This document shows, in pieces, positions 7,174 to 55,761 of a stretch of 64,000 nt of DNA; within the stretch, counting starts at the first letter, position 1, and the number at the start of each line of letters is the position of its first letter. Below the pieces are notes generated by a model. The model saw nothing but the letters and a program-made list of their open reading frames with translations, had not been told where the DNA came from and searched no databases. Location: NCBI GenBank assembly GCA_041736895.1, contig JBGSSS010000210.1, positions 7,169-71,168 of the forward strand, written 5' to 3'. The translations under genes were made by a program, and so were the position numbers. The DNA is from Pirellulales bacterium (GTDB lineage: Bacteria > Planctomycetota > Planctomycetia > Pirellulales > JALHPA01).

Positions 7174-7764
7174 ATGTTCACCGGTCTCGTCGAACATTGC
7201 TTGCCATTGACCGCGGTGATCGAAGAGCCGCCGGGGCGAAGGCTCGTGCTCGCCGTGCCGGCCTATCGCAGTGAGATTACGCTGGGCGAGAGCATCGCAA
7301 TTAACGGGTGCTGTCTGACCGTCGTCGAGATCGATGGGGACAAGCTCCATTTCCAAGCCGGACCCGAGACGCTCGCGCGGACGAACCTGGGCCAGCTTGC
7401 GACCGGCAGCCGGGTGAACATTGAGCGCTCGCTACGCTTTGGTGATCGGCTCGGCGGGCATTTGGTTACGGGGCACATCGATGGCGGCGGCACGGTCGCA
7501 AGGCGCGAGGATGTCGCCGATTGGTCGACGTTTTACTTCGCCGCGCCGCCGAACCTGCTCCGGCAAATGGCGAGCAAAGGCTCCATCGCCGTCGATGGCG
7601 TGAGCCTGACCTTGGTCGAGGTCACCGACCAACACTTCTCGGTCCAACTCATTCCGCACACACTCGCCGTGACGACACTCGGCGCGAAAAAGGTTGGCGA
7701 TGCGGTGAACCTGGAAACGGATCTGCTGGCCAAGTATGTCGAGCGGCAGTTGGTGTCCAAGTAG
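7174..7764 (+). CDS. ribE: riboflavin synthase alpha chain
   Basis: MFTGLVEH...INGCCLTVV...VNIERSL...GHLVTGHIDG...VDGVSLTLV is the duplicated lumazine-binding pattern. The ORF-track N-terminal extension (from 6742) is rejected. Confidence 0.9.
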   Translation: MFTGLVEHCLPLTAVIEEPPGRRLVLAVPAYRSEITLGESIAINGCCLTVVEIDGDKLHFQAGPETLARTNLGQLATGSRVNIERSLRFGDRLGGHLVTGHIDGGGTVARREDVADWSTFYFAAPPNLLRQMASKGSIAVDGVSLTLVEVTDQHFSVQLIPHTLAVTTLGAKKVGDAVNLETDLLAKYVERQLVSK

Positions 7765-7841
7765 TGTGGGCTTCAGCCCACACGTCAAAAAGCCATGGCA
7801 TAGCAATGAGCGCAAGTTTCAACGGCCACAACTGCCGCTGC

Positions 7842-10397: not shown

Positions 10398-10424
10398 TCC
10401 CAGGGGATGAACCCCTGGGCTTTG
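10398..10424 (-). repeat. CAAAGCCCAGGGG-N4-CCCCTGGGA palindromic repeat
   Basis: TCCCAGGGGATGAACCCCTGGGCTTTG, between the convergent rsmA and metallophosphoesterase genes. Confidence 0.7.
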
Positions 10425-12166: not shown

Positions 12167-12193
12167 CAAAGCCCAGGGGTTCACCCCCTGGGA
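12167..12193 (+). repeat. CAAAGCCCAGGGG-N4-CCCCTGGGA palindromic repeat
   Basis: CAAAGCCCAGGGGTTCACCCCCTGGGA. Identical to 33491-33517. Confidence 0.7.
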
Positions 12194-12496: not shown

Positions 12497-12609
12497 AGCG
12501 TTGGCGCGGAGCGAGTATCCCGATGATTTCGAACGTTAGGCATTCATGCCTAACCGCTTAGCCGGAGCGTCTACGCCCGGCGTGGCAGACTGGAAAGCCT
12601 GACCTCCGA

Positions 12610-14100
12610 TCAAGCGATCAATTCCTTGATCACCTTGGCATGTTCGACACCGGTGAGCTTGCCGTCAAGGCCCTGCGTTTTGAAGGTGAAGCGTTCGTGG
12701 TCGAGGCCCATGTTGTGGAGAACCGTCGCGTGGAAGTCGCGGATATGGACTGGGTCCTTGACGATGTTGTAGCTGAAGTCGTCCGTCTCGCCGTAGATCG
12801 TGCCACCCTTGAACCCGCCGCCGGCCATCCACATCGTGAAGCAACGGGGGTGATGGTCGCGGCCGTAGTTTTCCTTGCTGAGACCGCCTTGCGAGTAGAT
12901 CGTGCGGCCGAATTCACCGCCCCAGACGACGAGCGTGCTGTCGAGCAGGCCGCGTTGTTTGAGATCAGTGATCAAACCGTAAGTGGCTTGGTCAACGTCC
13001 ATGCACTGGCTCGGCAGCCGGACTTTCACGTTGGCGTGATTGTCCCAATTGTTGTGGTAAATCTGGACAAACCGCACGCCGCGTTCGACCAGCCGCCGCG
13101 CGAGCAACGCCGTGTTGGCAAAGTGCCCCGGCTTCTTGGCGTTTTCGCCATAGAGTTTGAACGTCTCTTCGGTTTCGGTGCCAAGGTTCGTCACTTCGGG
13201 CATGCTCCCTTGCATCTTGAACGCCATTTCGTACTGCTGGATGCGGGTGCGCGTCTCGGGATCGCCAAGTTCGGCGAGCGTCATCTCATTCAACTTGTTC
13301 AGTCCATCGAGTGTCTTGCGGCGGACTTCGCTGCTGACGCCCGGCGGATTATTGATGAACAAAATCGGATCGCCAGCGGTGCGGAACGACACGCCCGCAT
13401 GCTCGCCGGGGAGATACCCGCTCGACCAGATGCGGGCCGAGATCGCTTGAATCTGTTCGGTATTGGAGGGCTGCGCGACCATGACGACAAAGGTCGGCAG
13501 GTTGTCGTTGAGGGAACCGAGGCCGTAGCTGGTCCACGAGCCGAGACAGGGCTTGCCGGTGATTTGGTTGCCGGTCTGCATGTAGCTGACGGCCGGTTCG
13601 TGGTTGATCGCTTCGGTGTGCATCGAGCGGACGAAGCACATTTCGTCGGCGACCTTGGCGGTGTGGGGAAGGAGTTCGCTGATCCACATGCCCGACTTGC
13701 CGTGTTGGGCGAACTTGTACATCGACGGCGCGATGGGGAACCGCGCTTGGCCGCTGGTCATTGTCGTGAGCCGCTGGCCATTGCGAACCGATTCGGGCAA
13801 GTCCTTGTCGTACCAGTCGTTCATCTGGGGCTTGTAATCGAACAAGTCCAGCTGCGACGGCCCGCCGAGCATGTGCAGATAGATGACGTTTTTGATCTTG
13901 GCCGGGAAGTGCGTCGCGGGGAGCGCAGCGCGCTTGCCGATCGTCGCGGTCAGCGCAGGATCAATTTTATCGGATGTTTCTTTGCCAAACAGATGCGGCT
14001 GCATCAGCGCGGCCAATGCCGCGCCGCCAAGCAGGTGCGAACCTTGCGCAAAAAAGTGACGGCGAGTAAGGTTGAGGCCAAGTTGTTGGAGTGGGTTCAT
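12610..14100 (-). CDS. DUF1501 domain-containing protein (sulfatase-like fold, Tat signal)
   Basis: MNPLQQLGLNLTRRHFFAQGSHLLGGAALAAL Tat-like leader, then typical DUF1501 blocks (MLGGPSQLDLFDYKP; GGEFGRT; RDHHP). ATG at 14100. Confidence 0.9.
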   Translation of the reverse strand: MNPLQQLGLNLTRRHFFAQGSHLLGGAALAALMQPHLFGKETSDKIDPALTATIGKRAALPATHFPAKIKNVIYLHMLGGPSQLDLFDYKPQMNDWYDKDLPESVRNGQRLTTMTSGQARFPIAPSMYKFAQHGKSGMWISELLPHTAKVADEMCFVRSMHTEAINHEPAVSYMQTGNQITGKPCLGSWTSYGLGSLNDNLPTFVVMVAQPSNTEQIQAISARIWSSGYLPGEHAGVSFRTAGDPILFINNPPGVSSEVRRKTLDGLNKLNEMTLAELGDPETRTRIQQYEMAFKMQGSMPEVTNLGTETEETFKLYGENAKKPGHFANTALLARRLVERGVRFVQIYHNNWDNHANVKVRLPSQCMDVDQATYGLITDLKQRGLLDSTLVVWGGEFGRTIYSQGGLSKENYGRDHHPRCFTMWMAGGGFKGGTIYGETDDFSYNIVKDPVHIRDFHATVLHNMGLDHERFTFKTQGLDGKLTGVEHAKVIKELIA

Positions 14101-14108
14101 GATGGAAT

Positions 14109-14934
14109 GTAGCCTACTTGCCCCGCAAGTAGGCGAAACGGGGGAAGAGTTGATTTTACAAAACACGCGAGTAGTGAATTACTTGCCGATAATCAATCCC
14201 AGCTTCTTTCGGGTTTTCGATGATGTATCGACGTAAGCGAAAAAATTGCGCCTCGGTTCTGATCAAATGATCAAACGAATCTGGTTGCCAAAAACGTCCG
14301 TGCACATCAATTGCTTGATTGATCTGAAAGGCAGTCAAATGCTTCCAATTGCGGCAAATCTTCAGCAGCGAAACATCGTCAGGAAATGCTGCGATAAGAT
14401 GCACATGATTCGGCATAATGATGAAGTCATAGAGGATGTAATCTCGTTCATCGTCATGCTGCAATACATCCGCGACGATTTGAGCAATTCGCTTTTTGCG
14501 CAAGACGCATTCGCCATAAGCACGATCAAGCAATCGATTCCAACCTTGCGTCATTTTGCGTTTATATTCAGTTTGCAATGTTGGATTCAGTTGACTGACA
14601 TTGACCTGCAACTGTTTTCCCTGAACAACAATTCCCTTGTCTCGTAACCAAGCATTCCGTTTTTGCAGCCAACGATCCAGCACAGCCTGGGGAATCGAGT
14701 CCCAGGTGCGCCAGGTAATGAAACTCAGGGTCGCTGCTTGAGACCAGTGCGGCAATCTTCGCTGCACAACGGACTTTTCCGCAGCGTGATCATACGTGCG
14801 GAAAGGAATCGACAGTTTTGGAATGTCCGACATAAAGTCGTTGCTCTTTTGTGAAGACAAGCAAGGTTCGGAGTCTGAGAGTCTTTCTCGCCAACTTGCG
14901 GGGCAAGTTGGCTACATTCAGGCAAGTTGGCTAC
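14109..14934 (-). mobile_element. RAYT locus: transposase gene bracketed by inverted REP hairpins
   Basis: Left GTAGCCTACTTGCCCCGCAAGTAGGC (14109-14134). Right GCCAACTTGCGGGGCAAGTTGGCTAC (14890-14915) plus half copy GGCAAGTTGGCTAC (14921-14934). The arms are reverse complements apart from one compensatory base pair. Confidence 0.7.
14156..14833 (-). CDS. REP-associated tyrosine transposase (RAYT, IS200-like Y1/HUH family)
   Basis: HUH motif in IIMPNHVHLIAAF; RFWQPDSFDHLIR; catalytic-Tyr region LRRYIIENPKEAGI. ATG at 14833 (TTG at 14860 possible). Flanked by inverted GTAG-headed hairpins. Confidence 0.8.
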   Translation of the reverse strand: MSDIPKLSIPFRTYDHAAEKSVVQRRLPHWSQAATLSFITWRTWDSIPQAVLDRWLQKRNAWLRDKGIVVQGKQLQVNVSQLNPTLQTEYKRKMTQGWNRLLDRAYGECVLRKKRIAQIVADVLQHDDERDYILYDFIIMPNHVHLIAAFPDDVSLLKICRNWKHLTAFQINQAIDVHGRFWQPDSFDHLIRTEAQFFRLRRYIIENPKEAGIDYRQVIHYSRVL

Positions 14935-21158: not shown

Positions 21159-21164
21159 GCAAAT

Positions 21165-21192
21165 GATAGTTGATAATGGACAATTGACAATG
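21165..21192 (+). repeat. AT-rich heptanucleotide tandem array (GACAATT/GATAATG type)
   Basis: GATAGTT GATAATG GACAATT GACAATG, between the OYE gene stop and the cupin gene start. Confidence 0.75.
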
Positions 21193-21217
21193 AATACGAG
21201 TCGTTGCTTCGTTCTCC

Positions 21218-26440: not shown

Positions 26441-26446
26441 AAAAAT

Positions 26447-26514
26447 GGATAATTGACAATTGATTATTGACAATGTGCGAGACACTTGCATTGTCCATTG
26501 TCCATTATCAATTC
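26447..26514. repeat. inverted AT-rich heptamer arrays (hairpin-forming), 3' of the fur-family gene
   Basis: GGATAATT GACAATT GATTATT GACAATG, then a 13-nt loop, then CATTGTC CATTGTC CATTATC AATTC. Between convergent stops at 26440 and 26523. Confidence 0.8.
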
Positions 26515-26974: not shown

Positions 26975-27067
26975 CAATGGATAATTGATAATGGACAATT
27001 GACAATTAAAAACAGCAGCAGCGACAGCTTCCATCATTGTCCATTATCAATTGTCAATTATCAATTG
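26975..27067. repeat. inverted AT-rich heptamer arrays, 5' of the fur-family gene
   Basis: CAATG GATAATT GATAATG GACAATT GACAATT, then a 24-nt spacer, then CATCATTGTC CATTATC AATTGTC AATTATC AATTG. Begins 6 nt upstream of the fur-family ATG. Confidence 0.8.
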
Positions 27068-27079
27068 CTATCCCTTGCG

Positions 27080-28761: not shown

Positions 28762-28981
28762 TGGTTTTTAGAAGCCCGCGGCGTGAGCCAGGGAGTGAAA
28801 TCAAAGTCAAAAGTCGAAAGGCAAAAGGAATGGTTTTCATTTTTCATCGGCCAAAGCCGCGGCGAGTCATGCGGCAAATCGTCCAAGTGACGGATCTTGC
28901 CGACGGTAACGATTACGCAGGCCATTGCGGACCAGCAGGGGATGATTTATCACACTGAGCAGCGGCTTGCATCGAAAATAC

Positions 28982-29008
28982 TCCCAGGGGAAAATCCCCT
29001 GGGCTTTG
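28982..29008 (-). repeat. CAAAGCCCAGGGG-N4-CCCCTGGGA palindromic repeat
   Basis: TCCCAGGGGAAAATCCCCTGGGCTTTG. Confidence 0.7.
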
Positions 29009-29026
29009 CAGGTTTCATTTCGCATT

Positions 29027-29061
29027 CCCCAACCCCCAATCCCGAATCCCCAACCCCCAAG
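29027..29061 (+). repeat. C-rich heptanucleotide tandem array (CCCCAAT type)
   Basis: CCCCAAC CCCCAAT CCCGAAT CCCCAAC CCCCAAG. Ends 6 nt before ATG 29068. Confidence 0.8.
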
Positions 29062-29067
29062 CAACCC

Positions 29068-29529
29068 ATGTCCCCCGAAACACAACTCACCGCTCTTGGC
29101 ATTACCCTCGCGATCCCCGGCAAGCCGGCCGGCGTTTACAAACCGGTTGTGCAGGTCGGCAACCTGCTGTACCTCAGCGGGCACGGGCCGATTCAGACCG
29201 ACGGCAAGGGACTCTGCGGCAAAGTTGGGGCGGACCTGACGCTGGAGCAAGGCAAAGAAGCCGCGCGGCTGACGGGCCTATCGCTGCTCGCGACGCTGCG
29301 AGCGTACCTCGGCTCGCTCGATCGCGTCGTGCGGATCGTCAAAACGCTCGGCCTGGTGAACAGCGCGCCGGACTTCACGCAACACCCTGGTGTGATCAAC
29401 GGCTGCAGCGAATTGCTTCGCGATGTCTTCGGCGAAGACGCAGGGATCGGCGCACGGAGTGCGTTCGGCGCTGCAGCGCTGCCAGCCGGTTGGGCGACGG
29501 AGATTGAGTTGATTGTGGAAGTCGCGTAG
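29068..29529 (+). CDS. RidA/YjgF family protein
   Basis: VGNLLYLSGHGP...GKVGADLTLEQGKEAARL...ARSAFGAAALPAGWATEIELIVEV. ATG at 29068 after a heptamer array. Confidence 0.85.
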   Translation: MSPETQLTALGITLAIPGKPAGVYKPVVQVGNLLYLSGHGPIQTDGKGLCGKVGADLTLEQGKEAARLTGLSLLATLRAYLGSLDRVVRIVKTLGLVNSAPDFTQHPGVINGCSELLRDVFGEDAGIGARSAFGAAALPAGWATEIELIVEVA

Positions 29530-29550
29530 CTCGTAGCCATTGCTACGAGC
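29526..29550 (+). repeat. GTAG-headed REP-like hairpin
   Basis: GTAGCTCGTAGCCATTGCTACGAGC. The TAG at 29527-29529 is the stop codon of the RidA-family gene. Confidence 0.6.
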
Positions 29551-31393: not shown

Positions 31394-31417
31394 GCTCGAA
31401 GCACGGCTTCGAGCTAC
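31394..31417 (-). repeat. GTAG-headed REP-like hairpin
   Basis: GCTCGAAGCACGGCTTCGAGCTAC (minus strand reads GTAGCTCGAAGC...). Contains the TAG stop of the PQQ-propeller gene (31414-31416). Confidence 0.6.
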
Positions 31418-32700
31418 TTCCCAATGCAATAGATCGCTTCGTTCGACCGCAGAAATAACTCGCCGTTGCTGACTGCCGGACTCGCATTGCAGTCGCTGGT
31501 GTCGTCGCCGAGTTTGTTGGTGTGGAGAATCTTAAACTTGTCGCCGAGTTCATAGACGAATGTCCCGCTGTTGCGGCTCACGGCGTAGAGTTTGTCGCCG
31601 ATCAGCGAGACCGACGCGTAGAACGGCCGCCCGCGGAGGCCGCCGCTGCCGGAGCCCATGCGTTCTTTGTAGATCGACTCGCCCGTCTTGGCATCGACCG
31701 CGCAGGCGAGGCCCGCGTCGCTGACCCAGTACAGCCGGCCGTCGTGATAGACGGGTGTCGGAACATAGCTGCCGTTCCGGACGGACCAGAGGACGTTCGT
31801 TTTGGTGACGTCGCCTTTGCCGCCGACTTTCACCGCGGTCGTGCCAGCCGGACGTCCGCCGGTGACGTAGACAGTGTCGCCGTGCGCGATGGCGCTTGGC
31901 GAGGCGTTCCCCTCGACGTTGGTCTTGGCGTACCAGATCAACTTGCCCGTCTTGGGATTCATCCCCCAGACTTCGCCCGGAACCGAGACGATCATCTCGG
32001 TCTTCTCGGCGGTCTTGACCAGGATTGGCGTCGAGTAGGTCAGGTGCAGCGTATCGGCGGGCGACTTCCATTTGATCTCGCCAGTCAGCTTATCGAGACC
32101 GTAGATCGTCCGGCTTTCGATCGCCGCGTTGACGATGACGAGGTCCTCGAACAAGATCGGGCTCGCGCCGGAACCCCAGCGCGGCTGGCTCGTGCCGGTG
32201 CCGACGGAGGTCTCCCAGAGTTTCTTGCCGTTCAAGTCATACGCCAGGACGCCGCTCTTGCCGTAGAAGACATAGACGCGTTCGCCATCGCTCGTCGGTG
32301 TGCTGCTCGCGTAGCCGTGATCGTTGATGAAGCCTTCGGCTGGGTCTTCGGGCAGAATGGCTTTGACCTTTTGCTCCCATTGGATCGCGCCGGTCTTGCG
32401 GTCGAGGCAAATCAGCGAGCGTTCCAACTTGCTCGGCGACCCGCCGCTCGCGGAGTAGCCAATGAAGCTGGTCACGAACACGCGATCGCCCACGACGATG
32501 GGACTCGACGTGCCGGGGCCGGGCAGGGGGGTCTTCCAGCGCAGGTTTTCCGTCGCGCTCCAGGTTTCGGGCACGATTTCCGAACTGATTCCGCCGCCAT
32601 CCGAACCGCGAAACCGCACCCAATCCGCGGCCACTAGAGTGGTGAAGCCCAAGGAAAGAAAAGTGCCAAGCACGACGGCCCGGGCAAATGTAAGTCGCAT
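31414..32700 (-). CDS. PQQ-like beta-propeller repeat protein
   Basis: Signal peptide, then DWVRFRGSDGGGIS...WKTPLPGPGTSSPIVVGDRVFVTS and repeated blade motifs (G.LYAV, DG.LYWVS). Confidence 0.85.
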   Translation of the reverse strand: MRLTFARAVVLGTFLSLGFTTLVAADWVRFRGSDGGGISSEIVPETWSATENLRWKTPLPGPGTSSPIVVGDRVFVTSFIGYSASGGSPSKLERSLICLDRKTGAIQWEQKVKAILPEDPAEGFINDHGYASSTPTSDGERVYVFYGKSGVLAYDLNGKKLWETSVGTGTSQPRWGSGASPILFEDLVIVNAAIESRTIYGLDKLTGEIKWKSPADTLHLTYSTPILVKTAEKTEMIVSVPGEVWGMNPKTGKLIWYAKTNVEGNASPSAIAHGDTVYVTGGRPAGTTAVKVGGKGDVTKTNVLWSVRNGSYVPTPVYHDGRLYWVSDAGLACAVDAKTGESIYKERMGSGSGGLRGRPFYASVSLIGDKLYAVSRNSGTFVYELGDKFKILHTNKLGDDTSDCNASPAVSNGELFLRSNEAIYCIGK

Positions 32701-32828
32701 ATTAGAAAGATGTTAAGGTGATAAGTCCGGTCAAGAAAAGAGCCGCCGCGCGCAAACCATGGGCCGGGTTTCCGCGTAGAGGTTAGCAATGAAACCCCGG
32801 ATGAGCGGGGAAGTATCGCCCCTCACAT

Positions 32829-32905
32829 GTAGCCAAGGTCGTGAGACCTTGGATATGCAGACTAGGTCCAGAGGTTATCATCTGAAGTCTCACGACTTCA
32901 GCTAC
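32829..32905. repeat. REPIN-like inverted doublet of GTAG-headed hairpins
   Basis: GTAGCCAAGGTCGTGAGACCTTGG (32829-32852) and CTGAAGTCTCACGACTTCAGCTAC (32882-32905), heads pointing outward. Confidence 0.6.
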
Positions 32906-32928
32906 AAATCACTTACAAGCGACAACAC

Positions 32929-33465
32929 ATGTCCACGGAACTCGCAACTTTCGGCGGCGGATGTTTTTGGTGCATCGAGGCGGTCTTCGAACAACTGCGC
33001 GGCGTCAGTAAAGTCGAGTCCGGCTATGCCGGCGGCGCTTCTGAGAAGACGACCTACCGCGATGTCTGCAACGGTAACACGGGCCACGCCGAAGTGATTC
33101 AGGTCACGTTCGACCCCGCGGTGATTCCGTACCGCGACCTCCTGCAGATATTCTTCGGCATGCACGACCCGACGACGCTCAACCGCCAAGGTGCCGACGT
33201 CGGCACACAATATCGCTCGGCGATATTCACGCACTCGCCGGAGCAAGACAAGACCGCACGCGAAGTGATTGCCGAACTCAACAGCCAGCAACTGTGGGAA
33301 AAGCCGATCGTCACCGAAGTGACACCGCTGACGACGTACTGTCCGGCCGAAGATTATCATCAAGGCTACTTCCGCAACAATCCCGAGCAGGGGTATTGCC
33401 TGGCGGTGATCCCGCCGAAGCTGGCGAAGCTGCGGTCGAAGTACGGCAAGTGGGTGCAGGAATAA
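32929..33465 (+). CDS. msrA: peptide-methionine (S)-S-oxide reductase
   Basis: ATFGGGCFWCIEAVF active-site motif; GHAEVIQVTFDP; DYHQGYF. Confidence 0.95.
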   Translation: MSTELATFGGGCFWCIEAVFEQLRGVSKVESGYAGGASEKTTYRDVCNGNTGHAEVIQVTFDPAVIPYRDLLQIFFGMHDPTTLNRQGADVGTQYRSAIFTHSPEQDKTAREVIAELNSQQLWEKPIVTEVTPLTTYCPAEDYHQGYFRNNPEQGYCLAVIPPKLAKLRSKYGKWVQE

Positions 33466-33490: not shown

Positions 33491-33517
33491 CAAAGCCCAG
33501 GGGTTCACCCCCTGGGA
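33491..33517 (+). repeat. CAAAGCCCAGGGG-N4-CCCCTGGGA palindromic repeat
   Basis: CAAAGCCCAGGGGTTCACCCCCTGGGA, between msrA and the hydrolase gene. Confidence 0.7.
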
Positions 33518-33586
33518 GCATTCTGGGCATGCAGCAACTCTCCTTTTCACGCACTCTCCCCCCGGTCATTGACCGGGGGCTAATTT

Positions 33587-34468
33587 ATGTCCAACGACAT
33601 CGCCGCTACTCCCCAACGTCCCAGTAAATGGAAGCGCTGGCTGCGGGGGCTGCTCTGCATCTACCTGGTCTACATGGGACTGATGTACTTCTTTCAGCGG
33701 TCGCTCATTTTCCCGGGGCAGTATCGCGCTGCCGAGCCGCCACTGCGCTTAAGCGATGGAATGGAGCAGCTCTGGATCGAAAACGACGGAGCCAAGGTCG
33801 AAGTCTTGCTCCTCGCGCCGCTGAAGACAGAGGATCAAGCCACAAGTGCCGGCGTGAAACCAGCTCCGGCGAAACATCCGGCCATCATCTACACGCACGG
33901 CAACGGCGAGCAGATCGATGATTGGCTGACTGAACTGCGGCCGTATCGCGAGTGGGGCTGTTATGTGGTCCTCGTTGAATACCCCGGTTATGGCCGATCA
34001 ACAGGCAAGCCTAGCGAAGCGGCGATTGCCGACATCGTGACGCGCGTTTATGACGAATTGCTCAAGCGGCCGGACATCGACTCGACCCGGATCGTCGCGC
34101 ATGGGCGATCGCTAGGCGGCGGCGCGGCGTGTTTGCTCGCCGCGCGGCGGCCCGTTGCCGCGCTCGTTCTCGAATCGACATTCACGAGCGTTCGCTCGAT
34201 GGCGGGGCGCTATGGGTTGCCCGGGTACTTTTGCAGTGACCCGTTCGACAATTTGCAGGTCGTCAACGAGTGGCAGAAACCGTTGCTGATCTTTCACGGG
34301 ACGAAGGACCGGGTTATCCCGTTTTCGCATGGCGAAGCGCTGGCCAAGGCGAATCCCAAGGCCGAGTTCATTCCTTGGAAAGACGCCGACCACAACGATT
34401 TCCCGCCGGCGATTAGTCGCAGTTGGCCCGCGGTGCGGGTGTTCTTGGAGAAGGCGGGAGTCTTGTAG
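33587..34468 (+). CDS. alpha/beta hydrolase
   Basis: N-terminal TM; IIYTHGNGEQIDDW; nucleophile elbow GRSLGGG; C-terminal DHNDF. Confidence 0.8.
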   Translation: MSNDIAATPQRPSKWKRWLRGLLCIYLVYMGLMYFFQRSLIFPGQYRAAEPPLRLSDGMEQLWIENDGAKVEVLLLAPLKTEDQATSAGVKPAPAKHPAIIYTHGNGEQIDDWLTELRPYREWGCYVVLVEYPGYGRSTGKPSEAAIADIVTRVYDELLKRPDIDSTRIVAHGRSLGGGAACLLAARRPVAALVLESTFTSVRSMAGRYGLPGYFCSDPFDNLQVVNEWQKPLLIFHGTKDRVIPFSHGEALAKANPKAEFIPWKDADHNDFPPAISRSWPAVRVFLEKAGVL

Positions 34469-34488
34469 CTCGAAGCCATGCTTCGAGC
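34465..34488 (+). repeat. GTAG-headed REP-like hairpin
   Basis: GTAGCTCGAAGCCATGCTTCGAGC. The TAG at 34466-34468 is the stop codon of the alpha/beta hydrolase gene. Confidence 0.6.
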
Positions 34489-34532
34489 GTTATTTGCTAA
34501 GTCAGTCATCGAGTAAAGCAGAGACACACAAA

Positions 34533-34711
34533 GTAGCCAACTTGATCTGCAAGTTGGAACTCGCTGAGTGCCATTTCAAGTTCATGCACTATTTGCGAGC
34601 GGCGCATCTTTCCTTCTCGCGGGGCGAGAGGTCCACTTTGAATAGCTAACACTCGATTCAATGCGTCTTGGCCGCGCAGCGGTCTTCCAACTTGCAGAGC
34701 AAGTTGGCTAC
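34533..34711. repeat. REPIN-like inverted pair of the RAYT-flank REP type
   Basis: GTAGCCAACTTGATCTGCAAGTTGG (34533-34557) and CCAACTTGCAGAGCAAGTTGGCTAC (34687-34711). Same stem as the REP at 14890-14915. Confidence 0.65.
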
Positions 34712-34718
34712 TCTTTTC

Positions 34719-34742
34719 GCTCGAAGCATGGCTTCGAGCTAC
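34719..34742 (-). repeat. GTAG-headed REP-like hairpin
   Basis: GCTCGAAGCATGGCTTCGAGCTAC. Contains the TAG stop (34739-34741) of the enoyl-CoA hydratase gene. Near-identical to 31394-31417, including the preceding CTCTTTTC. Confidence 0.6.
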
Positions 34743-35518
34743 GGCCAAACCGGCGGTCGTTTTTCGATAAAGGCCCGCAGCCCCTCGGCTGCGCTTTCGG
34801 TCGTGCGTGCCGCGGCGCTCACCGCTGCGCCAGCGGACAATTGCATCGACAGTTCTTCGCCGATCATTTCATTCAGCATTCGCTTGCTCATCAAGAGCGC
34901 CTCGGGCGCGTTGAGCGCGATCTCTTCGGCAATCAGCGTGGCCCGCGCCCAGAGCAGATCGTTGCTGACCAGCTCGTGAACCAATCCGATGCGAAACGCT
35001 TGATCGCCATCAATCACTCGGCCAGTTAGCAACAGCGGTGCGGCTTGGCCGGCGCCGATTCGAAACGCCAAGAGCGGACTGACGATCCCCGCGACAACGC
35101 CGCGGCGCGGCTCGGGCAAGCCGAACTGTGACTCGCTCGACGCGATCACGATGTCGCAGGCCAACATGAGCCCCAGCCCGCCAGCCACGGCGGGGCCGTT
35201 GACCGCGGCGATCAGTGGTTTGGGAAACCGGAGCATCATTTCGAGCAAATCGCGGTAGATTTCAGCATCTTCTTGGAGACGTTCCTGGGCATCTTCGCCC
35301 GTGCCGGCGGCTTGCATCTCGGCCAGGTCCATGCCGGCGCAGAACGCGCTGCCAGCGCCGGTGATGACCACGGCGCGGACCGGCTTCTCGCGATGAAGCG
35401 TGCGCAGGGCACCTTCGAAATCGGCGAGCAACTCGCGGCTCAGCGCGTTGCGCTTCTCGGGCCGATTCAGGACAATCGTGCCGGCGTGCTGGTGCGCCAT
35501 GATTTTGACAAGGGACAT
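34739..35518 (-). CDS. enoyl-CoA hydratase/isomerase family protein
   Basis: IVLNRPEKRNALS...VVITGAGSAFCAGMDL...AAVNGPAVAGGLGLMLACD crotonase motifs. Confidence 0.9.
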   Translation of the reverse strand: MSLVKIMAHQHAGTIVLNRPEKRNALSRELLADFEGALRTLHREKPVRAVVITGAGSAFCAGMDLAEMQAAGTGEDAQERLQEDAEIYRDLLEMMLRFPKPLIAAVNGPAVAGGLGLMLACDIVIASSESQFGLPEPRRGVVAGIVSPLLAFRIGAGQAAPLLLTGRVIDGDQAFRIGLVHELVSNDLLWARATLIAEEIALNAPEALLMSKRMLNEMIGEELSMQLSAGAAVSAAARTTESAAEGLRAFIEKRPPVWP

Positions 35519-35706: not shown

Positions 35707-35740
35707 AAAAAAAGCCCCGCGATCAGCGCGGGGCTTTTTT
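35707..35740. terminator. bidirectional Rho-independent terminator
   Basis: AAAAAAA-GCCCCGCG-ATCAG-CGCGGGGC-TTTTTT, 26 nt downstream of the histone-like gene stop. Confidence 0.85.
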
Positions 35741-43415: not shown

Positions 43416-44678
43416 ATGTCTCGCCGTGGGTTTACCCTAGTCGAACTGCTCGTCGTCATTGGGATCATCGGAATCCTCGTGGCGCTGTTGTTGCCCGCCG
43501 TGCAATCGGCCCGCGAATCGAGCCGCCGTTCCCATTGCGCCAACAATGTCAAGCAACTCGGCGTAGCGCTGCACAACTTTCATCAGACCCACCGCCAACT
43601 GCCGACCTACAACGGCATCTTCCCCCTCGCCAAAACCTCGCTCCAATCGGCCAACACCAAACGCGTCTATGGCAGTTGGTTCGTTCATCTGCTCCCGTTT
43701 GTCGAGGAAAAGGCGCTCTACGACAGCATCGCCAACGACGTCCAGAAGTATTCCAACTCCGGCGCGAAGCAAGTCGTCCCCAGCACGCCCGCCTCGGCCG
43801 GCCACTACGAGCCTCCTTGCAAAACTATTAAGGGCGTCCCCGCCACCTACAACCAGTACACGGGCTCGCTCCAACCTGTCACCACCACCAACGGCAACGG
43901 CTACACGATCACCGAGATGAAATGGGTTCCGCCGCGCACCCCGGATCCAGGCACCGGGACACCCGATACCAAGGACTGCACCAACAGCAAGTGGATTCCC
44001 GGCACCTCGGCCGGTCCGCCGATCGAGAACAACGGCTACGTCGGCATCTGGCGGCCGGCTCATCGCAAGCGCACCTTTGCCATCCTCCGCTGCCCCACCG
44101 AACAAACGTCGCCCGATGGCTTGGTCTACAAAGGCGAATGGGGCGCGACGAACTACCTGGCCAACTGGAACTCCTTCACCAATCGGATTGCCAAAGACGG
44201 CTACAAGGCCAAGAACACCAACTTCTCGAAATACGCCGACGGCACCAGCAAGACGCTCCTCCTCGGCGAAGGCTACGCCGTCTGCGAGACCAAAGAGCGC
44301 ACGGCGTTCCTTGCCTGGCACAAAGGCTCCGACGGCGGCTTCTCGAACTACGGCGGCGTCCACAACTTTGGCCTGACCTTTAGCTTTACCGCGGCCCAAC
44401 AGGTCGACAACGGCACCGGCCCGGTCAAAGTTGCCTCGACCAACGGCTTTCCGAACCCCTCGCTCAGCCCCTACCTCGTTTTCCCGATCCAAATCCAACC
44501 GAGCCCCACCGCCACGGGCGACAACGGCTGCACCAGCCTTACCGCCCAGACCCCGCATCAGGTCATGAACACCCTCTATGCCGACGGCTCGGTCCACACG
44601 ATCACCGGCGACATCGACCGCGACCTCTGGGCCACGATGATGCTGCCGAGCGACGGAAAAATCGCAGCGGCCAAGTAG
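43416..44678 (+). CDS. DUF1559 domain protein with prepilin-type N-terminal cleavage/methylation domain
   Basis: [50 protein letters not shown]-terminal ADGSVHTI. Confidence 0.9.
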
Positions 44679-44751
44679 CTTGTTCCAAGGGACCCAACCG
44701 CAGCCTTCCGCCTCCTCAACATTCGTCCGCGTCCAGACAGCCGCGAAAGTG

Positions 44752-45110
44752 TCATTCTTTTTTCCTGTTGCTCCCGGCGCAACACCGCCAGACTCTCGAA
44801 AAACCGGGCAAAGCTGGGAAAAATCCGGGAAACACCACCGAAAACGCGCGAAAAAACCCAAAAAAATCGCAAAAAGATCGGAAAAAAACGCAAAAAGAAC
44901 GAAAAAAATCAGAAAAAAACGCAAATGTGCGCGCCCCCAATGTCCGTGTTTAAACGAACACCGCTTCGAGCGACTACCACAATCCCGCGGGCAAACCACA
45001 CTCGCCGCGCGCCGGGTCAGGCCCAAGCCGGACAAAGCGCGCGCCGCCCGATTTTGGGGTGTTGCCTTAAAAGGCAACACTCGCGGGGCTTTTGGGTCGT
45101 TCGTCGCCGC
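44752..45110 (+). repeat. phased-A-tract element, copy B
   Basis: Same orientation and architecture as copy A. A-tracts at 44799-44919. Hairpins at 44767-44783 and 45061-45078. Confidence 0.85.
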
Positions 45111-45112
45111 CT

Positions 45113-45217
45113 GTAGGTCCCGCGGTCCTCCGCGGGACCTGGTGCGGGGGGACGCGTGACGTGTCCTCTCGCGGCGTCCAACGCCGCACCGGGTCCCGGT
45201 CTCCGACCGGGACCTAC
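45113..45217. repeat. REPIN-like inverted doublet (GTAGG head)
   Basis: GTAGGTCCCGCGGTCCTCCGCGGGACC (45113-45139) and GGTCCCGGTCTCCGACCGGGACCTAC (45192-45217). Confidence 0.55.
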
Positions 45218-45729
45218 AACGTGCCTGCGCGCGCCTATTCCGGCCATTCTCTTTACACGCAGTATTCATATGAACACAACCGCTGGCCCAAAATCAACCC
45301 CCCACGGAGGTAAAAAAGGGGTTCAAGGTAAAAAAGGAAGGTAAAAAAGGGGTCAGAATGTCTGCCCCCTTACTCGCGGGGAAAGAGCCTTAAATCCAAG
45401 GTTATTTCCCACGATGTCATGGAGAAAAAAGAGGGCAGAACTATTTCATCAATTTTTCGGACTTCTTTTCTCCTCCGCCAAATTTCTAGAAGCCTTTGGG
45501 TTTTCCGCCTGAAATATTGTTCGATTTGCCAACGGGGCCTGTCTATAATCAAGCTTTCTCAAGGCGGCAAGGGAGCGATGCGGCAGAATCATTTCGGAGT
45601 GAAACAAGGTTAGGTGGAGCGCGAGGGGAAGCGTTTCCAGAGTGCCGGATCTGAGAATCGCCGCGCAGATGCTGCAACACAATTACGCGCTGGTCAAGTA
45701 CAACACCTAGGACTTGGGCTGGTCAGGAG

Positions 45730-48700
45730 ATGACGATGAGAATCACTTGCAATTCTCTGTTCAGGAACAGCACCTTATTTGTAGGGTGTATTTTATTTTG
45801 GGCTTTGTTCGTTGGAATTTCGAGCCAGGGACTTGCCCAACAAGTTCGCCCCAACATCATCCATATCTTGGCCGACGATCTCGGCTGGGGGAGCGTGGGG
45901 TTTAATAATCCGACAACCTACATTCAAACACCAAACCTCGATGCCTTGGCCATTGGCGGGATGGCGTTGTCGCGTTCTTACGCACCGACAGTTTGTTCCC
46001 CGACACGCGCTAGCCTGATGACGGGCTTCCATAATGGCCGGGCTTTCAACGATCGGAATGGGAATATTGCCGCGGGTCTTCGTGCTGAGGATGTCACGGT
46101 AGCCAACGTCTTGAATGATGCTGGCTATCGGACGGCGGTTGTCGGCAAATGGGGTTGGGGAGCGGACAATGCCGCTTCCCCCGCAATCAATAATTCAGGG
46201 ACTCTCCCAGCGAATCAGGGGTTCGATCAGTTCTATGGCTACTTGAATCACACCAGTGCCCATGATTACTACTATCCTCAGATGTGGCAATCCTCGGCGT
46301 TGGGCGGTCCCACGGTCACAAGCCCCAACAATGGCGGACCAGGCGGCGCGGCGCAATATACCCACGATCTCTTCACGCGCAGCACCGAAGCCTTTGTTCG
46401 GGATAACGCGACGGCGAGCCAGCCATTCTACCTGCAAGTCAGTTACACGATTCCCCATTTCAGTTTGAGCGACGTGGATGCCGCGCCGGCGCTGGTCAAT
46501 CTCGCGAACCAAACGATCTATCCCGGCGGTCAGGCACAATACGCGGCGAACGCCAGTCTGAGTACGGCCGAGAAGCGGCACGCCGCCATGATCTCGAGGA
46601 TGGATGCCTCGATCGGCTCCTTGATGCAGCGCTTGCAAGATCCGAACGGAGACGGCAATACGGCCGACTCGATCCTGAACAATACACTGATTCTCTTTAC
46701 CTCGGATAATGGCGCGTCGGCCGAAGGACTCGGCGCAACGGCCGCGGCGAGCAATGCGATTTCCGGCGGTTTGCGCGGCGGGAAACGGGATTTGTATGAA
46801 GGTGGAATTCGAATGCCCACGATTGCCTTTTGGCAAGGAACGATTGCCGCCGGTTCGAGTTCCGCCATCACAACGGACGTCGCCGACTTCCAGGCAACCG
46901 CTGCGGAACTGGCTGGCGGAAAAGCTCGCGTCGGCACCGATGGCGTTTCCATCCTGCCAACTCTGCTGGGAACTCCGGGGCAGCGCAATCGCGGCGGTTT
47001 GCTGTTCGAGAACTTTGAAAACAGCCAGTACGGGCAAAAGAATTCCGATTGGGCCGTGGTGCGGGATGATTACAAGTTGATCAAGTTTCGCGACGGCACC
47101 TTCGAACTCTACAACGTCACGACGGATCAAGGCGAAGCAGCCCCACTCAATCTAAGCATTCCGGCCAATGCAAACCTGCGCGCTGAACTCGAAGCTTTTG
47201 CGCTCCGGCAGGGAGCAGGCCAAGCCGACAGCTATGCGGTGGGTTTTCGTGATTGGAAAGGCGCGAATGGCGCGGACCTGGCGAGCCCTGCCAACTACGA
47301 AGTCACCAATGATCCGACGGCCAGCGTGGGGCCAGTTGCCGAAACATGGTCGGCACTCATTGAAAACCGCTCGGGTTCGCCGCAGTCTGCCAGGATGTCG
47401 AGCAGCGTCACGGTTCTCGGCCTCGAGGTCAGCGGCACAACACACCAGCAAGAGGTCGACATTCGCCCCAGCACGATCTTGACCGGCCGCAACGAGGTTC
47501 GAATTGGCAGTCATGGCAAGATTCAACTGACCAACGCCGAACTCCAATCGGATCGTTGGCTCGATCTGCAAGCGGGCGGCGTGCTGACAGGTCAGGGGAC
47601 GATCCGTGGGGATGTTTATCACAGCGGCACCATCAAACCGGGGTTCGATGGCGTCATGGGAACTCCTCCGCCGCCGCCGGTAACTGGCGGAACATTTAAT
47701 GTCGCGCTCGATTTTTCTGCAATCGATAATCGAGCCGGCAAAGACCTCGTCTACACCCCGCTGATCAGAACAATCGATCAGGGGGTGGTGAGCTTGGATT
47801 ACGGTCCATCCATCGGCTCCCGGCTCCTCGATCGCGGCTTCAACGATTTTGCCAGTGAGTTCAATCTCCAGAATTGGACAGTCGGCGGGACGCTGCAAGA
47901 TGCGATCAACGACAATGCTTTTGTAAGCATCACGGTCGATCCCACGGAGGGTCTGGCGGTATCGTTGCAGTCGGTCAAATTCAACTTCTGGAGGAATGGC
48001 GCCAACTCTCCGTCGCAATACGCCATCTCAACCAATCTCGACGGCTTTAATGCAAGCTCGCCTTTGGCAACCACCTCGGTAACAACTTCTGGCTCGGCAA
48101 ACACCGTTCAATTTCAGGCCAGCGGAACCGGTTTGTCGACCCGCGAGCAACTGGCGGTACGCCTGTATGGCTGGGGAGCAGGAAACATCAATGGCCATAC
48201 GCATTTAACCGGCGCAGCCCTCGATCTCCTCTTTACGACGGTCTCGGAAATCCCGCTAGCGCCCGCCGGCGTACTCACCATCGAAGGCGATTTGATCCAT
48301 ACGGCCTCGAGCAAGATCGAAATCGGCGTGGGAGGGTTCGACAACTCGAATATCAATGCGCGCGAGTTCGACTTGATTCAAGTGATGGGCGATGTCAATT
48401 TGCTCGGGGAGCTAATGCTCTTTGCTGAGGACGGCTTTGTTTTGGCTGGCGAGTCCCAGTTTACTTTCCTCACCGCCGATGCCGTTACCGGGAGTTTTTC
48501 CAGCTTCGAAGCCATCGGCTTTGATGGTTACAACGTCTCGCTGGTATACGGAAGCAATTCGGTATCCGCCAAGTTTACCCCAGTCCCCGAACCAAGCACC
48601 GTCCTGCTCGTGCTCGCCTGCGGCGGTTACTTGATCGTCAAACGACGTCGCGGATTAGAAAAAGGGGTCAGGCCCCTTTTTCTTGTTGACCGCGGCGGTG

Positions 48701-48814: not shown

Positions 48815-48838
48815 GAAAAAGGGGCCTGACCCCTTTTC
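48815..48838. repeat. GAAAAAGGGGCCTGACCCCTTTTC hairpin repeat
   Basis: Inverted relative to 48658-48682. Between convergent genes. Confidence 0.65.
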
Positions 48839-50930: not shown

Positions 50931-50953
50931 ATAAAGGGGCCTGACCCCTTTTC
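50931..50953. terminator. AAAGGGG-CCTGA-CCCCTTTT hairpin (terminator-like dispersed repeat)
   Basis: 14 nt after the AraC-family stop. Same hairpin at 48658-48682 (inverted loop) and 48815-48838. Confidence 0.65.
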
Positions 50954-54000: not shown

Positions 54001-54172
54001 CATTCGCCACGCGTTTCGCTTTTTCCTGGGCCGCAACGAAGTTTTATCCGATTCCAAAACGCTGATCGATGCCGATAATGCTTATGTCCAAAGCGGCGGC
54101 AGCTTCGACGCGGTCATCGTTTCGCTGCTAACATCAGATTCGTTCATTTACCGCAAACCTGCGACCAACTAA
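51065..54172 (+). CDS. DUF1592/DUF1588/DUF1585-type planctomycete cytochrome-domain protein
   Basis: YCVECHG near the N-terminus and CAKCHDRMNPLGVAFEMYDDFGRFR near the C-terminus. Followed by its usual DUF1552 partner. TTG start at 51065 is uncertain. Confidence 0.85.
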   Translation: MAFPPCSNRLAEASLILLARCRFALALFTLLLAVLLRAGVGAEPERKPLAAAPADMAGLQTLFTRYCVECHGAKTAEAELRFEAVAGLGLETRLDFLNRAQEQIVIGEMPPAEAQQPTEAERRRLSDLIGTELRRHNASKLEDKLRKPEYGNVVDHEKLFSGQYKDLPGATPDRRWLISEYIFDAKFNTLLGYVGQRDIDGKRYQIIGDNNRNGARVNLTNPFLLPTLSGVRYYDTASLDGGHLLTMLTNAKEVSAYLLMRARNKGFIPAVDTIMKLEWEHEKILAAREGYLKLNIEPLLSELYPEQHERLLPKFTASKYTPPPVALGADGKPLKKPVFDTAKPSNDELNEIWSGIRRHSPDGAADPALIEKCERDWFYFGVNERTIQARFSFMHAYLEDLLKKMPKASAVKLKPQADAELAIIRAALLKHRQAGDTFAAIIAKCMAEWSDEFRREREKISVTDETLSALVDQLFVKILERSPTPEELTEYLALTKSYLPQLGNAKTIERLLQTLILRTDFVYRQEFGVGEADEHGRKLLSPRDASYALAYALTDSSPDKELQEAVKNGKLNTREDYRREVERMLNNRSQYYLIEEAVDRSGHDSLTNLPIRKLRFFREFFGYPGMLAIFKDNKRFGGNYTDAAGRLVSEADMLVELILKEDRNVFERLLSTEEFYVYHSGNNAAMAAATDRIRKIYDHFKDLDWQNFDAEQLIAHVPFLKENPMPGLNLDVIGKPGGRSDQVKIFKGMMTNYTQRLGTKQTVTAPFSSVFGVPSAANTRTGKRLGGAEVAKAFNLDMLSWDYPTTQPAKMEHRRGLLTHPAWLIAFAGNTATDPVRRGKWVREKLLAGTIPDVPVTVDAVIPEDHHKTLRQRLELKTSDSYCAKCHDRMNPLGVAFEMYDDFGRFRTEESLEHPDNLVKKMPDKGAPHDDLRDIYKTLPVNAAGKLTGTGDPKLDGELRDALDLAQRLAKSAKVRQSIIRHAFRFFLGRNEVLSDSKTLIDADNAYVQSGGSFDAVIVSLLTSDSFIYRKPATN

Positions 54173-54191
54173 CGATAGAAAGCTCGCCAAC

Positions 54192-55583
54192 ATGAAAACC
54201 CGTCGCGATTTTCTCAAAACGACTGCCCTGGGCGCTGGCGCGTTGGCGCTGACTCCGAGCTTTGCTGCATTTGGTGCGGCACCCGCCGTAGGCATCCCCA
54301 AGCGGTTTGTGTTTATTCGCAAATCGAACGGCGAGCGGCCGAACGAAGTCGCGCTGCCGACGCTGGCTGCCAAAGAAAAAGCGCTCGAGGAAAAGAAGGA
54401 AGCCTTTGAGGTCGACCTGCACAACCACGAGCTGCCCGTCTATCTCCGCGCGTTGGAAAAGCACAAAGCCAATCTGGGCATCCTGCAGGGCTTGTCGTGC
54501 ATGATGAGCGAGAACGGCCACTTCTCGTACTCGTCGATCATGGGCGCGTTCAAATCGAACCGCAATTCGCTGAGCGGCATCAAGCGCGCCACGATCGATT
54601 TCGAATTGGCCAAGCTTTTTCCCTCGCCCTTTGGCCATGTCGAACTCTCGCTCACCGGCGACTACAACACCTATCGCACCGGTATTGTTTCCGGGTATTC
54701 GGCGTCGGGCCCTCATCAGCGCAACTATTGCTACGCCGATCCGCAGACCGCGTTCAATGAGCTGTTCCAGGCGGTGACCAATCCGGGCGCGGTGAACTCG
54801 GACAATGCGATGCTGAACTTTCTGGAGCGCGAAGAGTCGTTCAAGGAGCGCATCCTCGTCGGCTACGAGAAGCAAAAACTCAGCAACCACATTAGCTCGA
54901 TCGAAGCGATCCAAGCCCGCAACCAGAAACTCGCGCAGATGGCCGGCTCCATCGAGAAGCACATCCCCGCGCTCGCCAAGGTCCACGCCAACGGCGGACC
55001 GACCGCTAGTTACCCAGAAAAGCAAGAGGCGATGACCGACATCCTCATCGCCGCGCTCGTCACGGGTCTGACGAATGTCGTGACCTACACGATCGACGAG
55101 CTCTCGACGCCCGTGCGCGGACTCCCCGGCAACGAAACGGATCGCATCTCGATCCACGCCATCGGCCACAACGAAAGCTACAGCGGCGTGCCGGCCGACA
55201 AGATCCGCGAGAACATCCGCATCGGCCAAATCGCCCAGGTCGCCAAAATCGTCGAACGACTCAAGGCCACACCCGAGGGCAGCGGCACCATGTTCGACAG
55301 CACGATGATCATGTATTTCCCCGAGGGGGGCGAAACGCATCACGGCTGGGGCTATGAAGCGCCGTTTGTGATCCTGGCCGGGGACAAGTGCAATCTGAAC
55401 ATCGCCGGCCGTTACCTCCGCCTGCCCTACCACGGCACCGCGGGTCATAAAACCATTGGCAATTGGTACACGACGCTGCTGAACGCCCACGGCAACCCGC
55501 TCAAACATTACGGCGACCTCGATCTCGAGATGTCGCGCAAGAAGCTGGATCAACTCGGCGCGATTCAACCGTTGCTGGGGTAA
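54192..55583 (+). CDS. DUF1552 domain-containing protein (Tat signal)
   Basis: MKTRRDFLKTTALGAGALAL twin-arginine leader. Family-typical length and position after a DUF1592-type gene. Confidence 0.85.
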   Translation: MKTRRDFLKTTALGAGALALTPSFAAFGAAPAVGIPKRFVFIRKSNGERPNEVALPTLAAKEKALEEKKEAFEVDLHNHELPVYLRALEKHKANLGILQGLSCMMSENGHFSYSSIMGAFKSNRNSLSGIKRATIDFELAKLFPSPFGHVELSLTGDYNTYRTGIVSGYSASGPHQRNYCYADPQTAFNELFQAVTNPGAVNSDNAMLNFLEREESFKERILVGYEKQKLSNHISSIEAIQARNQKLAQMAGSIEKHIPALAKVHANGGPTASYPEKQEAMTDILIAALVTGLTNVVTYTIDELSTPVRGLPGNETDRISIHAIGHNESYSGVPADKIRENIRIGQIAQVAKIVERLKATPEGSGTMFDSTMIMYFPEGGETHHGWGYEAPFVILAGDKCNLNIAGRYLRLPYHGTAGHKTIGNWYTTLLNAHGNPLKHYGDLDLEMSRKKLDQLGAIQPLLG

Positions 55584-55659
55584 GGGATCACTCAAAAATG
55601 AGTTCCGCATTTTTTGTCGCCCGCAGAGTTACAACATGATGCAACTGCTATCACGGAAT

Positions 55660-55761
55660 AGCTCCGAAGGAGCGGCATTGTGTAGCCAGGGGTGTAAGCC
55701 CCTGGTTGACTTCACCAGGGGCTTGCACCCCTGGCTACATTCCTTCGCTCCTTCGGAGCTT
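55660..55761. repeat. nested ~100-nt palindrome containing a GTAGCC-headed doublet
   Basis: AGCTCCGAAGGAGCG...GTAGCCAGGGGTGTAAGCCCCTGG...CCAGGGGCTTGCACCCCTGGCTAC...CGCTCCTTCGGAGCT. Confidence 0.6.

Follow-up and report, generated by a model that had tools for sequence, protein, structure and literature searches.

GTAG-headed hairpins at gene ends of a Pirellulales-type planctomycete: probable REP elements accompanying a RAYT-like gene

Why does a single gap between two convergent genes carry four short hairpins, each headed by GTAG, with two different stems? The gap (34465-34742) separates an alpha/beta hydrolase gene (33587-34468, + strand) from an enoyl-CoA hydratase (ECH) gene (34739-35518, - strand). 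It lies in a 64-kb stretch of contig JBGSSS010000210.1 (assembly GCA_041736895.1), and this whole stretch is called the window below. An earlier note on this DNA had listed 14 GTAG-headed hairpins and likened them to repetitive extragenic palindromes (REPs) and to inverted REP doublets (REPINs). We conclude that the hairpins of the window are very probably GTAG-tagged REPs, several of them arranged as head-outward, REPIN-like dimers, in an uncultured planctomycete of the Pirellulales type. The DUF1501, DUF1549/1553, planctomycete cytochrome c, DUF1559 and sulfatase domains found by Pfam in the window point to a planctomycete.

GTAG-headed hairpins of the window

We scanned the window for perfect hairpins with a stem of at least 7 bp and a loop of 3-6 nucleotides (nt), and used dinucleotide-preserving shuffles as the control. 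The window contains 60 such hairpins compared to 20.6 +/- 4.5 in the shuffles, and 15 of the 60 are headed by GTAG, whereas the shuffled sequences gave 0.17 such hairpins on average and never more than 1. No other 4-mer heads as many of these hairpins, although GTAG is a rare 4-mer window-wide. The comparison with shuffled expectation that the earlier note had proposed was thereby carried out for the window, and it came out in favor of the GTAG-headed units. All 14 units listed before were recovered with their positions and stems, and the scan added a 15th at 7761, a unit that the orthologous gene of a related metagenome contig (L001) lacks at its end. A looser scan of all GTAG sites of the window, based on an energy threshold, was non-discriminating and gave no additional convincing units.

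Each unit consists of a GTAG head, a perfect stem of 7-11 bp and a loop of 3-6 nt, 23-28 nt in total, such that all 15 show both the palindromic stem-loop and the terminal GTAG of the GTAG-REP superfamily. Their density is 15 in 64 kb (0.23 per kb), with 1-5 units per stem family. We distinguished stem families A (CC(A/T)ACTTGC), B (CTCG[A/T]AGC), C (CCAAGGTC/CTGAAGTC), D (GTCCCGCGG/GTCCCGGTC; GTCCCG...) and E (CCAGGGG). The units are extragenic, lie mostly downstream of open reading frames (ORFs) and often form inverted dimers: seven are at the ends of Pfam-supported genes, and the bodies of Pfam-supported genes are free of them, with the caveat that the unit at 14109 possibly overlaps the uncertain 5' end of the DUF1501 ORF. 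The four head-outward doublets reported before (32829/32882, 34533/34687, 45113/45192 and 55682/55715) were confirmed, and head-outward pairs number five if the nested outer pair of the hydrolase-ECH gap is counted. Each doublet occurs once in the window. The four units of the gap, also reported before, turned out to be two nested inverted pairs, the outer arms (GTAGCTCGAAGCCATGCTTCGAGCG) being 25 nt long with 100% complementarity and the inner arms (AGTAGCCAACTTG...) 28 nt long with 96%. At the center of the gap (~34610-34645) stands CCTTCTCGCGGGGCGAGAGGTCCACTTTGAAT, which three related genomes (L006, L094 and L095) also keep. In these relatives it forms a longer inverted repeat together with an upstream CTCAAAGTGGCC...GTGAGCAGG arm, whereas the window has one arm only.

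Five Pfam-supported genes, namely the riboflavin-synthase-like (7764), YjgF-like (29529), PQQ_2 (31414, - strand), hydrolase (34468) and ECH (34739, - strand) genes, have the TAG of a GTAG head as their stop codon, and all four family B units of the window supply a stop codon in this way. Heads end an ORF of at least 100 codons in 8 of 15 cases, compared to 8.8% of all TAGs (p 1.3e-5), where three of the eight ORFs are spurious or unsupported. A similar proportion was found in syntenic relatives, where 7 of 13 heads end an ORF of at least 100 codons (p 1.7e-4). Long antisense shadow ORFs lie opposite DUF1501 (12640-14112, +), msrA (32902-33363, -), DUF1559 (43437-45269, -) and DUF1552 (54144-55610, -); those opposite DUF1501 and msrA end in the TAG of a REP head, and gene callers could be misled by them.

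A RAYT-like gene between inverted family A units

The window contains a 225-aa ORF (14156..14833, - strand) for a transposase of the HUH/Y1 type that resembles REP-associated tyrosine transposases (RAYTs). The ORF matches Pfam Y1_Tnp (PF01797) with 29.4 bits, above the cut-off of 23, and its HUH motif (MPNHVH) and tyrosine motif (Y..NP) are invariant in 23 homologues. This assignment was further supported by the match of the family profile to PDB 4ER8 (E. coli TnpArep; E 1.3e-4) and by the JGI name RayT that some homologues carry; the named RAYT homologues come from metagenome-assembled genomes (MAGs) of Pirellulales and Pirellulaceae. The gene is single-copy within the 64-kb window. Inverted family A units, GTAG-CCTACTTGC at 14109 (+) and GTAG-CCAACTTGC at 14915 (-), bracket it with their heads outward; that is, a Y1/HUH gene stands between inverted REPs, as in a REPtron, and it does so for family A only.

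The same layout recurs in relatives. In L001, the PSD1-RAYT-DUF1501 gene order is preserved around a RAYT of 74% identity. Both 26-nt units flank this gene too, and the half unit on the upstream side and the left/right A/T difference recur with them; the non-coding sequence next to these units has diverged, whereas the units are unchanged. Searching metagenome contigs with the RAYT alignment yielded 80 more loci, and nearly all of those with readable flanks carry hairpin singles or doublets on both sides. The heads at these loci are GTAG, GTAC, GTGG or GTCG, the loops are mostly TCC/GGA, and the stems are locus-specific. This gene-plus-hairpin layout is the classical REPtron arrangement, and the RAYT of the window is most likely the partner of the flanking CC(A/T)ACTTGC family. 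Its single copy and syntenic position suggest vertical inheritance. The stems of families B, C, D and E were found in none of the 80 fetched RAYT loci. At some loci (L018 823, L055 4686, L056 1205, L087 4686 and L091 4587), the RAYT gene itself stops at the TAG that belongs to the GTAG head of the REP downstream of it.

By analogy with the enzymes of E. coli, Stenotrophomonas and Marinomonas, the RAYT would recognize GTAG together with the hairpin and cut at a nearby dinucleotide, its substrate being the hairpin into which a REP unit would fold as single-stranded DNA. Cleavage of REPs at CT or CA dinucleotides has been described (Corneloup et al., 2021; PMC8266576). Families B, C, D and E would probably be partners of RAYT paralogues elsewhere in the genome, or relics. 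The expectation of the earlier note that several REP families are present, only one RAYT of which is visible in the window, fits the data, since the one RAYT is flanked by family A only. The REP/REPIN-like reading as a whole is borne out by the bracketing of the RAYT of the window and of its homologues, and by presence/absence differences in relatives.

Turnover of units at orthologous gene ends

We compared four gene ends in up to nine genomes, including eight relatives (L002, L003, L004, L006, L092, L094, L095 and L097) whose hydrolase is 70-87% identical to that of the window and which represent separate lineages at the species level and not strains. At the hydrolase end, the hairpin directly follows the TAG in the window (CTCGAAGC/cat) and in L003 (CACGAAGC/cat, with one compensated pair). 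The corresponding hairpins are CTCATAGC/catt in L006, CACGAGA/ccgtga in L095 and CACGAGAC/catt in L094, whereas L004 has a family D stem. The hairpin is degenerate in L002 and L097, and L092 has no hairpin and a gene that is one codon longer and stops with TGA (ttg caa TGA); the stop position shifts by 1-2 codons between genomes. The ECH end has TAG plus a family B variant in most genomes. In L004, its TGA is retained and a family D unit with its own GTAG follows 3 nt downstream. A composite of family B and family A units at this end is common to the window and L095. At the PQQ end, the window has a family B unit, L003 and L004 have CTCGAGTC, and L092 has a tight doublet, a family A dimer. The PQQ end of L002 could be taken for an empty GTAG site, but its sequence (GTAGCCGACCTC) fits a decayed family A unit better, and the former interpretation was rejected.

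The window has the family A unit at 34711 in common with L095, whereas L006, L094, L003 and L002 lack it, and the family A unit at 34533 occurs in the window only. Comparison of the filled site of the window with the empty site of L006 places the GTAG within an insert of ~25 nt. L094 was dropped as a clean empty site for the family A unit, because the alignment is ambiguous and a longer segment is missing there. Presence/absence differences of the kind expected of mobile REPs, which the earlier note had proposed to look for between strains, were thus found among species-level relatives (34711, 34533 and the hydrolase end of L092). L002 carries the family C doublet upstream of msrA in the orthologous position with both stems unchanged, its left head being GTCG.

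Pairing is maintained throughout this turnover. In 14 aligned family B units, pairing amounts to 95.6%, and 4 of 9 pairs show compensatory changes, well above shuffled and slid controls. Units at different sites of one genome tend to share a stem, unlike the same sites in other genomes, which points to copying or replacement and not only drift in place. The different stem variants and families at the same gene ends across relatives indicate repeated insertion, replacement and decay. In the scheme that we propose, units would gather at gene 3' ends, with the TAG of the head often becoming the stop codon; there they would be inserted, replaced and lost repeatedly while the hairpin pairing is kept, and a hairpin that begins inside a stop codon would probably be transcribed as a 3'-end RNA hairpin. 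Selection on structure alone, which the earlier note had offered as another possibility, need not be invoked in addition, even though the hairpins have clearly kept their pairing.

Several observations weigh against identification of the hairpins as mobile GTAG-REPs. The RAYT of the window scores below the cut-off of its NCBIfam model (NF047646 REP_Tyr_transpos; E 7e-16, 58 bits, cut-off 80), and RAYTs for four of the five stem families were not seen in the window. Copies per stem family in the window are few (2-5), and an exact-pattern scan of 185,579 species genomes found the family B unit only 5 times, with the source genome absent from these hits. Finally, several units are kept at orthologous positions though the encoded proteins are only about 75-87% identical, and this conservation fits host function or slow decay equally well as ongoing mobility.

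Three other explanations were weighed against GTAG-REPs. The hairpins could be host-selected RNA structures at 3' ends, serving as terminators or mRNA stabilizers and evolving in place by compensatory change, in which case the link to the RAYT would be incidental. The seven units at the ends of Pfam-supported genes (five starting within the stop codon), their kept positions in relatives, the compensatory changes that maintain pairing, and the RNA-level roles proposed for REPs in published work are all consistent with this idea. However, units also occur at places where a transcript would not be expected to end, namely on either side of the RAYT and, as a doublet, between divergent genes upstream of msrA. 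Moreover, identical units at unrelated loci of one genome, with other variants or families at the orthologous sites elsewhere, point to copying or replacement as opposed to drift in place. The T tails 3' of the hairpins are also weak, yet a canonical bidirectional terminator exists nearby at 35708-35740, and on these grounds a reading of the units as intrinsic terminators was rejected. We consider host-selected RNA hairpins with an incidental RAYT improbable as the explanation; an RNA-level role at gene 3' ends may coexist with REP identity.

GTAG might instead be a pre-existing insertion target, like TTAC for IS608, with bare hairpin cassettes inserting just 3' of it, for example at stops of the form G+TAG. 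Different families do stand directly after the same stop codon in different genomes, the family D hairpin of L004 is followed by TTGAGCGAGAAAGA, apparently what is left of the 3' part of a family B unit, and G precedes 9 of the 12 TAG stops in the window. Nevertheless, this scheme appears very improbable, given that the two sites that lack a unit, the hydrolase end of L092 and the empty family A site of L006, have no GTAG, that the hydrolase stop moves by 1-2 codons among genomes, and that the ECH gene of L004 retains its TGA, with the GTAG being supplied by the unit itself 3 nt farther on. Published biochemistry likewise makes GTAG a part of the REP, where it serves for recognition and as a guide (Corneloup et al., 2021; PMC8266576). 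A chance or compositional artifact, or a recoding signal in which the hairpin promotes stop-codon readthrough, is hardly credible. Only the proximity of hairpins to UAG speaks for it; chance is refuted by 15 GTAG-headed hairpins versus 0.17 in the shuffles, and recoding, which finds no support, was rejected in view of units away from stop codons and on both strands, and of sequence 3' of the stops that is not conserved as coding among orthologues.

Having thus retained GTAG-tagged REPs as the identity of these hairpins, we also considered whether, in this planctomycete lineage, the units are preferentially inserted or retained exactly at translation stops, as portable modules of TAG plus hairpin in which families replace one another. 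We put this forward tentatively and think it rather unlikely; if true, REP turnover would be coupled to 3'-end formation or translation termination, as opposed to random intergenic insertion, and the Acido-Lenti-1 motif of Rfam would, as a corollary, be one arm of a REP dimer. The GTAG-REP class, the presence of several stem families and the donation of TAG stops are already described, planctomycetes included, and our understanding of how REPs work is unchanged by these results. What they add is a documented REP/RAYT system of an uncultured Pirellulales lineage and a small comparative set in which REP variants and families are exchanged at the same stop codons with pairing kept. Modestly new are this replacement of families at gene ends that stay fixed and the finding that one doublet matches the Rfam family Acido-Lenti-1. 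The results are also of value for annotation, as TAG stops, gene 3' ends and spurious antisense ORFs are shaped by REPs here.

Repeat inventory and comparison with known systems

The units of the window are collected in Table 1. A 26-nt family B unit (GTAGCTCGAAGCCATGCTTCGAGCGA) is present in identical form, after the same gggaaac context, in L008 (4778-4803, -) and L009 (1670-1695, -), which are two other Pirellulaceae MAGs, one of them Anatilimnocola; in L009, the unit ends a 267-codon ORF.

Table 1. GTAG-headed units and doublets of the window (positions in the 64-kb window)
Unit	Position	Strand or heads	Context
Singleton GTAG hairpin, TGTGGGC ttca; family membership uncertain	7761..7783	+	TAG is stop of riboflavin-synthase-like gene
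Family A variant, GTAG CCTACTTGC ccc GCAAGTAGG C	14109..14134	+	RAYT 3' side, head outward; identical unit in syntenic L001
Family A, GTAG CCAACTTGC ccc GCAAGTTGG C	14890..14915	- (head 14915)	RAYT 5' side, head outward; identical in L001
Half unit GTAGCCAACTTGC, head and 5' arm only	14922..14934	-	Adjoins full unit; read from sequence; kept in L001
Family B variant, GTAG CTCGTAGC catt GCTACGAG C	29526..29550	+	TAG is stop of YjgF-like gene 28897-29529
Family B, GTAG CTCGAAGC cgt GCTTCGAG C	31394..31417	- (head 31417)	TAG is stop of PQQ_2 gene 31414-32700(-)
Family C head-outward doublet, CCAAGGTC gtga / CTGAAGTC gtga	32829..32905	heads 32829+ / 32905-	Between divergent PQQ_2 and msrA
Family B, CTCGAAGC stem	34465..34488	+	TAG is stop of alpha/beta-hydrolase gene 33587-34468
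Family A, CCAACTTG[C], 8-bp stem, 5-nt loop	34533..34557	+	In no related genome examined
Family A, CCAACTTG[C]	34687..34711	- (head 34711)	In L095; not in L006, L094, L003, L002
Family B, CTCGAAGC stem	34719..34742	- (head 34742)	Exact inverted copy of 34465-34488; TAG is stop of enoyl-CoA hydratase gene 34739-35518(-)
Family D head-outward doublet, GTCCCGCGG tcct / GTCCCGGTC gga	45113..45217	heads 45113+ / 45217-	Common (T/C)GGTGCGG tail
Family E head-outward doublet, GTAG CCAGGGG	55660..55760	heads 55682+ / 55738-	Arms each extended by GCTCC-GGAGC hairpin

The two arms of the family E doublet (55660-55705, -, and 55715-55760, +) match Rfam RF01687 (Acido-Lenti-1) over the full 46-nt model, with scores of 46.3 and 39.3 bits compared to a gathering score of 37. 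In Rfam, RF01687 (Weinberg et al., 2010) is entered as a candidate small RNA (sRNA) of Acidobacteria and Lentisphaerae. The copies in the window are inverted relative to each other, lie on opposite strands with the GTAG head opposite the model strand, and have the look of a REP dimer. This arrangement suggests that Acido-Lenti-1 may be the arm of a REP dimer and not an sRNA; the motif is probably derived from REPs.

Several other repeats were noted in the same sequences. A hairpin family without a GTAG head, GCAAAG-CCCAGGGG-N5-CCCCTGGG-AGCATT, occurs in the window at 10399-10419, 12172-12192, 28983-29003 and 33496-33516, as well as in L001 (12665 and 16200), L002 (7031) and L006 (360), just 3' of several genes. 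At 33559-33579 of the window lies a member of a third family, in which the hairpin CCCCCGGTC-att-GACCGGGGG precedes CTAATT; it recurs near the same genes in L002 (7591, 7717) and L003 (5515, 5690). A terminator-like hairpin, AAAAGGGG-(t/c)c(a/t)g(g/a)-CCCCTTTT, is present in three copies (48657-48683, 48817-48837 and 50933-50951). Hairpins of the form GT(C/T)AGGC(A/T)-ttct, headed by GTAC and in some cases bearing CTAC at the opposite side, were seen in the window (12535-12554), L001 (12256), L002 (6909, 11958, 12173, 17423), L003 (14887) and L004 (11896); they may be a REP family with a degenerate head. AT-rich repeats of TTGATAATGGACAATTGACAAT-like words stand right after the stops of four neighboring genes (21159-21200, 26441-26480 and 26985-27079). 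Between the divergent PQQ_2 and msrA genes lies a non-coding block, GCCGCGCGCAAACCATGGGCCGGGTTTCCGCGTAGAGG...AAACCCCGG (~32745-32805), whose sequence L002, L003 and L004 have conserved and for which Rfam gave no match.

The closest description of units such as these is the GTAG-tagged REP superfamily, for which 24 families were defined from over 80 species, with Planctomycetes among them (Di Nocera, De Gregorio and Rocco, 2013; BMC Genomics 14:522, PMC3733652). As in that superfamily, the units of the window have a terminal GTAG, stems within 6-13 bp and short loops, fall into coexisting families and complementary subfamilies, form HH dimers with the GTAG termini on the outside, and lie at 3' ends, where they donate TAG stops; the RAYT gene is likewise flanked by repeats. 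The published subfamilies are distinguished by complementary stem residues, and the published units favor the 3' ends of convergent and co-oriented ORFs, with the GTAG terminus supplying TAG stops (PMC3733652). Rhodopirellula baltica has coexisting REP families and numerous tyrosine transposase genes with corresponding flanking repeats (PMC3733652). The source of the window differs in being an uncultured relative, and the likeness of its units to the R. baltica families lies in their published description. The earlier note had regarded a constant head with differing stems as unusual; because coexisting families and complementary stem subfamilies are already described, this apparent oddity is the published norm for GTAG-REPs (PMC3733652).

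The REPIN-RAYT system of Pseudomonas fluorescens (Bertels and Rainey, 2011) similarly has inverted REP doublets and a single-copy RAYT at a conserved syntenic position. In contrast to P. fluorescens REPINs, each doublet of the window was seen once, and the clearest insertion difference is a single 25-nt unit. REPs and bacterial interspersed mosaic elements (BIMEs) of E. coli share with the units of the window the GTAG head, the alternating orientation, two stem types per doublet (compare Y and Z REPs) and the location in 3' untranslated regions. The stems of E. coli REPs are bulged and imperfect, and this imperfection is needed for activity, whereas the stems of the window units are perfect. 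The window RAYT is divergent from those of group 3 REPtrons (58 bits versus the NCBIfam cut-off of 80), with a longer N-terminal half. Group 3 REPs, such as SMAG/REPSm of Stenotrophomonas maltophilia and REPMb of Marinomonas, are otherwise built alike, with a perfect 8-bp palindrome, a 3-nt loop and a GTAG head in ~23 nt (PMC8266576), and their genomes contain many families and several RAYTs each.

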